Shown here piece after piece: positions 15,001 to 16,935 of a stretch of 16,935 bases of DNA. A program made the position numbers. The first letter of the stretch is position 1. Each line of letters opens with the position of its first letter. The stretch lies in UHGV virus genome UHGV-0107614; one strand, 5' to 3'. The DNA is from a virus.

Positions 15001-16935
15001 GAAGGGGCTGATGCTGACACCCTGGCAATGATAGCGCTGTATCGTAGCGATATTCCGGCGAAGACGAAACACAATACGGCTGGCTGGGGGGAGAGCGTAA
15101 AAAAAGTACGACACAGTGTATCGGAAATGCTGAACGGAACGGTCAGCGCGAAACGCCTCGCAGAATGGATGGAAGGCAGAATGCCCTCCCGTTACGCGGA
15201 TACCTGGCAACTGTTACGCACTCTGCCACCCTCACAGATGGACAAGGCTTCTGCTTATCGGGTGGTATCGGGTGTGTATCAGGCGGCAGGAGGGAAGCGT
15301 TACGATCCGCCACAGAAACTTTATTCACTGCGCAATAAGGACAATAAGGGGACTAACCTCTTTTTCTCGGAAAGCAGGGATGAATTACTGACAAAGGCGA
15401 AAGTCTGGTTTGCAGAGCTGGAGGAAAAGTCACAGGCGAAAGGAGATGAAAAAACGGCACCGTCACCGGATGACAAAATCCGCTTTGACGTTTACCGGAA
15501 TACCCGCAGTGGCGATATTTTTATCGCTTATGGCAAAAACAAAATGCGGGTGAGAGGTGGCTTTAAGTCAGCCAGTGATGCGCGTAAGTACATTGATTCA
15601 CATCGTGATGAGCTTGTTCGTCATGTGAAGGAGATGCGGGAGATTTCGCGTGAGGAGCAGCGTAACGCCACCAACCGCGATCGTACCGGACCAGAACGCC
15701 GCAAGGGGGATGTTTCGCCGGAGCAGTTCAGTGATGCGTTTGGTTTTCGTGGTGTGCAGTTTGGTAATTATGTGGAAGGTCCGCGTCGTCAGGCTGATTT
15801 GAACCGGGCTTATGACTCGCTGCATGACCTGGCTGATGTGCTGAACGTGCCGACAAAAGCGCTTTCTCTGAACGGTCGTCTTGGGCTTGCTTTTGGTGCC
15901 CGTGGTAAGGGTAAGGCGGCGGCACACTATGAGCCGGGTGAGGTGGCAATCAACCTGACAAAAGGTAACGGACCGGGGGCGCTGGCCCACGAATGGTTCC
16001 ATTCACTGGATAATTATTTTGGTCGTTATGATGTTTCCACTGACGGGAAGATCACGTCAGGTGGCGACTATATGACGGAAGCACAGCGTGCCGGGCGCGT
16101 ATTTAAAGACGGCAGATATGTTGATGCGGAATATCCGGTACGTCAGGAGGTTTACGACGCGTTTAAAGGCGTGATGAAAGCGATCAACAGCAGTGACATG
16201 CCGCGTCGTTCAGCGCTTCTCGATGAGGTGCGCTCAAAACCGTACTGGTCAACGGATGTTGAAATGGCGGCGCGTGCCTTTGAGCGTTATGTTCAGGATA
16301 AAGCGCGTACGGCTGGCGTGGAGAATGATTATCTGGTCAATATCCGTAAGGCACCTGAGCACAACACAGATAACACCTGGGCTTATCCGACGAATGCGGA
16401 ACTGGATGGCGGTATTCGTGATGCATTCGATCACCTGTTCAGTACGCTGAAAACCCGTGAGACGGACAAGGGCGTTGCGTTTTATTCCCGTAAGGGCGTG
16501 ACCCGCACACCTGAAGGCAATCTCATTTCGGATGTTAACCGCAGTGCGGAAGCCAAAGGCAGCCCGGTCCCGCAGGTTGAAGCGGTTGCCCGTGGCGTGA
16601 TGAGTGGCATTAAGGACAGTGACCTGAAGGTCCGCGTGGTGAAGTCACAGAAAGAGGCTGAAGCGCTGGCGGGTGGATCGTTCGACGGTTGCGGCATGGT
16701 GCATGCGTTCTATCGTCCGGATAAACGTGAAATTGTCCTGGTGGCGGATAACATTCCTGACGGGCGGACCGTTCGCGAGAAGCTGCGTCACGAGATTATC
16801 CACCATGCAATGGAGCATGTAGTCACGCCAGCGGAATATCAGACGATTATTAAGACCGTGCTGAAAACCCGTGACAGTGATAACGCCACCATCCGCGAAG
16901 CCTGGCGTAAGGTTGATGCGTCTTATGGTAAGGAA

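Follow-up and report, generated by a model that had tools for sequence, protein, structure and literature searches.

The 16,935 nucleotides of the virus genome UHGV-0107614, hereafter the window, end inside a giant late gene whose orthologs in phages of the Shiga toxin (Stx)-converting type, including P13374 gp78, Sp5 ORF80 and phi24B gp47, encode proteins of ~2,800 aa. Two HExxH motifs encoded by this gene are probably the cores of two adjacent gluzincin-type domains, designated here domains A and B, which sequence comparisons and structure models lead us to regard as likely active peptidases of a polyvalent ejection protein. The first motif, HEWFH, is located at nt 15988-16002 (context GALAHEWFHSLDNYF) and the second, HEIIH, at nt 16789-16803 (context REKLRHEIIHHAMEH), the latter extending to HEIIHH up to position 16806. 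Both belong to window frame 1 of the + strand, the strand of the giant gene, and this frame is open from 14371 to the window end. The first-pass annotation had correctly placed the two motifs in one frame, with the flanking peptides found here, and had noted that the list of open reading frames (ORFs) omits the region; indeed, this is because the frame open from 14371 runs past the end of the window. In two respects it had to be amended: at residues 1297 and 1564 of the ~2,800-aa protein (gp78 numbering), the motifs are located in the middle of the protein and not in its C-terminal part, and the giant protein is not encoded as one continuous frame in the window, residues 1-772 being in frame 2 and residues 781-1612 in frame 1.

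As HExxH is a short motif and about half of its occurrences in databases are located outside recognized domains (Lenart et al., PMC3650047), one has to consider that both motifs occur fortuitously in a long protein. From the composition of the 2,806-aa gp78, 0.039 HExxH motifs are expected per protein, and two or more were obtained in 14 of 20,000 shuffles of the same composition. Conservation is a stronger argument than these chance statistics for the motifs being real: the motif residues, whose conservation had been named as a criterion, were compared among homologues, and they proved near-invariant in both domains, the second histidine of domain B being shifted to position +5. The near-absolute conservation of both motifs, the shuffle counts and a predicted fold matching that of zincins led us to reject a chance origin, which we consider extremely improbable.

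Domain A (15739-16479; gp78 residues 1214-1460) resembles the CLCA_X family of gluzincins. Its predicted order of elements comprises an N-terminal helix, three strands, the HExxH helix, an insert and a helix carrying a glutamate. Over 155 domain copies, the motif is close to absolute (first His 141/142, Glu 142/142, second His 141/142) and is followed at +3 by an Asp present in 140 of 142 sequences, the whole reading HEWFHSLD (15988-16011) on model helix 82-99. On strand 2, the His-Tyr-Glu of AAAHYEP (15925-15933) is similarly maintained (His 142/143; Tyr 127/143, with Phe in 16 others; Glu 141/143) and is predicted to face the active site. The downstream helix contains Glu (E175, 127/127), Arg (127/127), Tyr (128/129) and Phe (125/126), the glutamate encoded at 16261-16263 being the putative third zinc ligand. 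A word-indexed search retrieved 359 homologs of domain A. Among 40 aligned homologs sharing 35-63% identity, H84, E85, H88, G53, R55, G56, E65, I71, N72, T74, Y169, E175, R179 and F181 are invariant and H63, Y64 and D91 near-invariant, which can be summarized as the signature H..(strand 2)...HExxHxxD...Y-x5-E-xxx-R-x-F.

In Pfam, only the surroundings of this core are recognized, namely LPD5 (PF18799; 15289-15738, E=1.2e-46 to 4.8e-46), which spans the 150 residues directly upstream of domain A, and LPD1 (PF18796; 16219-16458, E=3.5e-25), which covers its last 80 residues; no Pfam model matched the HExxH core in the window fragment, the full gp78 or the 40 homologs. LPD1, which carries YWSTDVEMAARAFE (model helix 173-191), was found in 40/40 homologs and includes the Y-x5-E-xxx-R-x-F helix, and we therefore read it, from sequence and models, as the likely C-terminal Glu-helix half of the domain A peptidase with no existence as an independent module. 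LPD5 precedes domain A in 24 of the 40 aligned homologs, including stand-alone proteins of ~330 aa. Such LPD5-A-LPD1 proteins are common. One of them, of 333 aa, is encoded on a 68-kb phage contig (ENA ERZ28616710 scaffold_127, 8001-9002) among many small unannotated early-type genes, divergent from the terminase/portal block, which suggests that the domain A unit can work alone.

By sequence, the closest relative of domain A is CLCA_X, a predicted zincin family of phage and plasmid proteins with HExxH and a conserved Asp, often found in proteins of more than 1,000 aa without other known domains (Lenart et al., 2013, PMC3650047). The CLCA_X hidden Markov model (NCBIfam NF041907) aligned with gp78 residues 1195-1450 at E=8e-44 and almost from end to end (model positions 3-245 of 250), and domain A shares with this family an Asp downstream of HExxH (HExxH..D) and an occurrence in phages, prophages or plasmids, the window being itself of prophage type. 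Domain A is thus clearly homologous to CLCA_X in sequence, as a divergent relative that falls outside the family by the NCBI threshold.

Domain B (16552-16935; gp78 residues 1485-1655) is truncated by the window end, with approximately the first 128 of its 171 residues inside. A word-indexed search recovered few diverse relatives, and an exhaustive HMMER search with a 177-aa ortholog fragment yielded 330 cluster representatives at E<=1e-3 and 74 at E<=1e-10 (clusters at 50% identity), nearly all of them in proteins of 1,500-6,000 aa. In 164 copies, the first His (158/164) and the Glu (161/164) are strongly conserved, while in an ungapped alignment the second His is at +5 in 139/164 and at +4 in 75/164. 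Motif matching assigned HExxxH only to 152 of the 164 copies, HExxHH to the eight copies of the Stx-phage clade and no motif to four. The HEIIHH of the window (16789-16806; model helix 75-94) is the domain B active-site motif and fits both HExxH and the family-wide HExxxH. Indeed, the ungapped alignment retains the +5 His in the Stx clade, and MAFFT places a one-residue deletion there (HEVIAHHGL to HEIIHHAM), giving a canonical HExxH; under either alignment, a His occupies the ligand position. Further downstream, W122, Y129, E140 (160/164), A143, A146 and E147 are conserved, defining the signature HExxxH...Y-x10-E. E140, on model helix 134-147, corresponds to gp78 E1620, so that the Glu helix of domain B is located past the end of the window. 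Searches of gp78, 10 distant homologs and 31 aligned members gave no Pfam or NCBIfam match for domain B, and we predict that it represents an HExxxH zincin family for which these databases hold no model.

The distribution of domain B extends well beyond Stx phages. It occurs in ~105 Vibrio phages of ~60 kb, at 33% identity, and in conjugative plasmids of Pseudomonas, Xanthomonas and Burkholderia, where it is embedded in giant proteins annotated as 'zeta toxin family', an annotation that names one module of polyvalent proteins. One such copy is found at 41290-41799 of NZ_KU950310.1, within a 'zeta toxin family protein'. Because it is found in phages as well as in conjugative plasmids, domain B is common, as judged from its homologs, to the phage-type and conjugative-type polyvalent proteins.

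This pattern of conservation also bears on whether the two domains could serve as scaffolds or docking modules without proteolytic activity. The N-terminal domain of anthrax lethal factor (LF) has lost the catalytic residues. In domains A and B, the catalytic quartet H, E, H, E is near-invariant over hundreds of sequences at 25-50% identity, and only 4/164 domain B copies are without the first His; a scaffold or docking role is hence unlikely, because the catalytic residues have been kept invariant.

Structure prediction, which had been suggested as a way to examine the two motifs, supports their assignment to zincins. In confident models, each domain shows a zincin-like core formed by an N-terminal helix, a three-stranded sheet and two C-terminal helices, with likeness to solved zincins, and in each the motif is carried by a long helix following the sheet (helix 82-99 in domain A, helix 75-94 in domain B). 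In both models, a conserved glutamate (E175 in A, E140 in B) lies on a subsequent helix, and from its conservation and position we infer that it would serve as metal ligand. The best structural matches were 6fpc, 9g0j, 1yqy and 3dl1 for domain A, and 4fxq, 3kwv, 9g0j, 6fpc and 1yqy for domain B. They point to enzymes of the LF/Pro-Pro endopeptidase (PPEP) type (M34, ATLF-like) and to MtfA (M90), which are the nearest to both domains by structure. As in LF, the next helix of both domains carries a Tyr and a Glu, which we take to be equivalent to Y728 and E735 of LF. The families first put forward as candidates, SprT, WLM, ImmA/IrrE, ArdC and M48, were discarded as closest relatives, none of them being the best match. 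At the sequence level, the domain A profile aligned the HEFGHAVDDY segment of LF with HEWFHSLDNY (E=0.49, a weak match), and the domain B profile returned only chance helical matches among PDB sequences. In Pfam scans of the window fragment, full gp78, 10 distant homologs and all aligned members of both domain families, no peptidase family reached significance, and sub-threshold matches were limited to Peptidase_M76, MATCAP, DUF5700 and Peptidase_M91.

The two domains may furthermore be related to each other. When their profiles were compared with hhalign, strand 2, strand 3 and the HE of the motif were aligned at E=7e-4 (AAHYEP..INLT..HEW with HAFYRP..ADNI..HEI), which is consistent with a distant common ancestry as far as sequence profiles can tell. 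In 150 giant domain B homologs, ~29 A-B tandems, the arrangement seen in gp78, and ~25 B-B tandems were observed, with 99 proteins containing B alone.

The giant protein itself has the features of the polyvalent proteins described by Iyer et al. (2017): gp78 combines LPD5, LPD1, MuF_C and LPD38 within 2,806 aa, in the order LPD5-[A]-LPD1-[B]-MuF_C-LPD38 when the domains defined here are added to those of Pfam, and its gene adjoins tail-fibre and late genes. Among its orthologs, phi24B gp47 is an abundant virion protein absent from the capsid and tail density and proposed to be an ejection protein (phi24B cryo-electron microscopy preprint, 2026), and Sp5 ORF80 is essential for infectious, tailed particles (PMC5155283). 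We thus predict that the giant protein is a polyvalent ejection protein, its presence in the virion being taken from the literature and its delivery into the cell being predicted. The earlier proposal of two putative protease modules in one very large protein is borne out to the extent that both domains are conserved, zincin-like and set in a polyvalent protein, their activity being a prediction.

In the mechanism that we propose, two His and the downstream helix Glu of each domain would bind Zn2+, and the motif Glu would activate a water molecule for peptide-bond hydrolysis. The most likely substrate would be the giant protein itself, cut in the capsid or after ejection, and the separately acting pieces released would be an N-terminal part, a part with MuF-C, a predicted RNase, and a part with LPD38. 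Such a role would agree with the proposal that zincin metallopeptidases (MPTases), the commonest hub domain of polyvalent proteins, autoprocess the proteins that contain them (PMC5512222). It is less likely that domains A and B would cleave host proteins in addition. The same enzymes could instead be effectors delivered with the DNA and acting on substrates of the host or of competitors, such as envelope, defence or regulatory proteins, a role that Iyer et al. give as an alternative (PMC5512222). The common stand-alone LPD5-A-LPD1 proteins are in line with this possibility, as are the copy located in an early-type gene block away from structural genes and the fact that the structurally closest enzymes, anthrax LF and the PPEPs, are secreted, substrate-specific endopeptidases. 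However, there is no known candidate substrate, A and B are mostly located mid-protein among other modules in proteins of 1,500-6,000 aa, which fits processing, and the early-type context comes from one example; we hence regard host or competitor targets as rather unlikely. Provided that the domains are active peptidases, autoprocessing appears to us about twice as plausible as host-target cleavage. The first-pass annotation had envisaged a polyvalent effector or a protein processing itself or host targets: its polyvalent setting holds, and of the two roles, both of which are deductions, self-processing would be favoured and host-target cleavage would come second.

Several observations weigh against two active, self-processing peptidases. 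Metal binding and proteolysis are predictions in both families, and no Pfam peptidase model covers either core, including MPTase-PolyVal (PF18818) and ATLF. PF18818 gave no match at E<=1 in the window fragment, the full gp78, the 40 domain A homologs or the 31 domain B homologs, and the MEROPS M34/Pfam ATLF model gave no sequence match, the signals for this family being the LF segment at E=0.49 and the likeness in fold. The CLCA_X score of domain A, 150 bits, is below the curated NCBI cut-off of 260. For domain B, a Foldseek search against the PDB returned nothing at E<=0.001, with LF as best match at E=0.055, and the HExxxH spacing requires a distorted helix for canonical ligation. Moreover, the existence of stand-alone LPD5-A-LPD1 proteins, of which one context was examined, speaks against a strict requirement for domain A to act in cis, and processing of gp47 is unreported in the phi24B preprint.

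Comparison with described systems places both domains, on sequence and modelled fold, in the kind known as zincin-like MPTases of polyvalent proteins. With these they share a giant, virion-associated multidomain protein containing LPD domains and MuF-C, together with a proposed autoprocessing of the polyprotein. Iyer et al. (PMC5512222) distinguished an MPTase clade in which strand 2 carries a His and HExxH is followed by an Asp at +3, and another clade with HEXXXH; domain A fits the former and domain B the latter, both being matched by description only. The differences are that PF18818 matches neither domain and that LPD1, listed by these authors as a separate domain of unknown function, corresponds here to the Glu-helix half of domain A. 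The C-terminal MPTases of P1 DdrB and of the N4 virion RNA polymerase offer a further parallel, as predicted zincin domains of giant phage proteins packaged in the head, and according to work cited in PMC5512222, DdrB is processed before packaging. No domain B match was obtained in P1 DdrB or N4 when 50,697 phage records were searched by tblastn, the hits being confined to Stx-type phages and the ~105 Vibrio phages.

Taken together, LPD5-A(LPD1)-B might form a tandem-protease engine that cuts the Stx-phage ejection protein into effectors once it has left the capsid, with LPD1 as the Glu-helix half of domain A, with domain B as an HExxxH family of at least 330 clusters at 50% identity that has no Pfam or NCBIfam model, and with both domains as the nearest relatives of LF/PPEP (M34). 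We hold this combined proposal to be tentative, and if it were true, it would hint that LF/PPEP toxins derive from polyvalent proteins of mobile elements. A different peptidase assignment has been made in the 2026 phi24B preprint, in which the MuF-C domain is a metallopeptidase degrading peptidoglycan; for Iyer et al. (2017, PMC5512222), MuF-C is a BECR-fold predicted RNase. MuF-C corresponds to gp78 residues 1763-1852, beyond the window, and the HExxH domains are located upstream of it. Endopeptidases acting on the cell wall usually belong to the LAS, M23 or M15 groups, not to the zincins. With MuF-C being a predicted RNase and the HExxH domains being elsewhere, a peptidoglycan-degrading metallopeptidase in MuF-C was judged unlikely.

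In this contig, the giant gene is interrupted. Alignment with P13374 and E. coli 2015C-3121 revealed a 25-bp deletion at 14438|14439 (missing segment CGCGTACGCCGGATGARAATCAGGC), because of which the gene switches from frame 2 to frame 1; all 425 matching records of complete E. coli genomes carry the longer version, with 526 bp aligned to the 501-bp query. By tblastn, gp78 residues 1-772 matched 12125-14440 in frame 2 (92% identity) and residues 781-1612 matched 14440-16935 in frame 1 (97% identity over 832 aa). The 5' part of the gene thus covers 12164-14438 (frame 2; gp78 residues 14 to ~780), and its continuation 14439-16935 (frame 1; residues 781-1612 of ~2,806), truncated by the window end. 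After the deletion, frame 2 runs out of frame to a stop at 14959, the gene being split into a 931-aa product, with 772 real residues and an out-of-frame tail, and a downstream part without a start. Both motifs are downstream of the frameshift and, since the deletion puts them out of frame with the gene start, the domains are probably not produced here within the giant protein, except if the deletion stems from misassembly. The homolog of P13374 gp74 (ORF 9465-9998) is likewise interrupted near 9816 (~9812-9836), where 13 bp (TATCGCAGGCAGA) are deleted out of frame, so that its residues 1-124 are encoded in frame 3 and its residues 121-218 in frame 2. Short direct repeats border both deletions, GCAGG/GCAGA in the case of the 13-bp one. 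The contig derives from a metagenome assembly (ENA ERZ1309371 NODE_726, coverage 3.08x), and at this 3x coverage the deletions may reflect either prophage decay or assembly error.

Shiga toxin genes are disseminated within E. coli by short-tailed Stx phages, and the predicted catalytic centres of their giant protein, at E1298 and E1565, provide concrete targets for point mutations addressing cleavage, its timing and the dependence of infection on it. For annotation, LPD1 is better treated as one segment of a peptidase, and a widespread HExxxH domain still has no Pfam or NCBIfam model. The advance is modest: zincin domains in polyvalent proteins were already predicted in 2013 and 2017 and no new principle is involved, the novelty being the placement of two such domains, overlooked by current annotation and by the 2026 preprint, in the medically important giant protein of Stx phages, along with the reading of LPD1 as a peptidase part, the HExxxH signature of domain B and the gene interruption in this contig. 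In public records, the giant protein is labelled only 'LPD5/LPD38 domain-containing' or 'hypothetical', P13374 gp78 being annotated as 'LPD5 domain-containing protein'; its PHROGs match is phrog_616, of 'unknown function', and PADLOC returned zero matches.

From its sequence, the window can be assigned to a short-tailed Stx-type (Sepvirinae) prophage, of which it is the late region. The segment 14368-16935 is 95-96% identical to 186 phage records, nearly all of them from Stx-converting phages with short tails that infect E. coli and Shigella, among them phi191, P13374, TL-2011c and VT2-Sakai, and the gene order, with gp78 after the tail-fibre, Lom and small late genes, is the same in the window. 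To judge from the nucleotide sequence, the giant gene probably begins 13 codons further downstream than annotated in RefSeq, because the codon at 12125, where P13374 gp78 is annotated to start, is ATA here, because the ATG at 12164 is preceded by GGAG at a distance of 7 nt and because the phrog_616 profile begins at gp78 residue 14. Elsewhere in the late region, an ORF of 426 aa at 1712-2992, whose product has an N-terminus resembling a signal peptide and matches the YadA-like membrane anchor of Pfam (E=4e-16), probably encodes a trimeric-autotransporter-type adhesin carried as a moron, that is, an accessory cargo gene. Finally, an outer-membrane protein of the Ail/Lom family is encoded at 7809-8543 with 65% identity to P13374 Lom, the late genes flanking it being 92-100% identical to those of P13374 and gp77, further downstream, 87%; on these identities, the Lom homolog looks like a swapped or fast-evolving allele.
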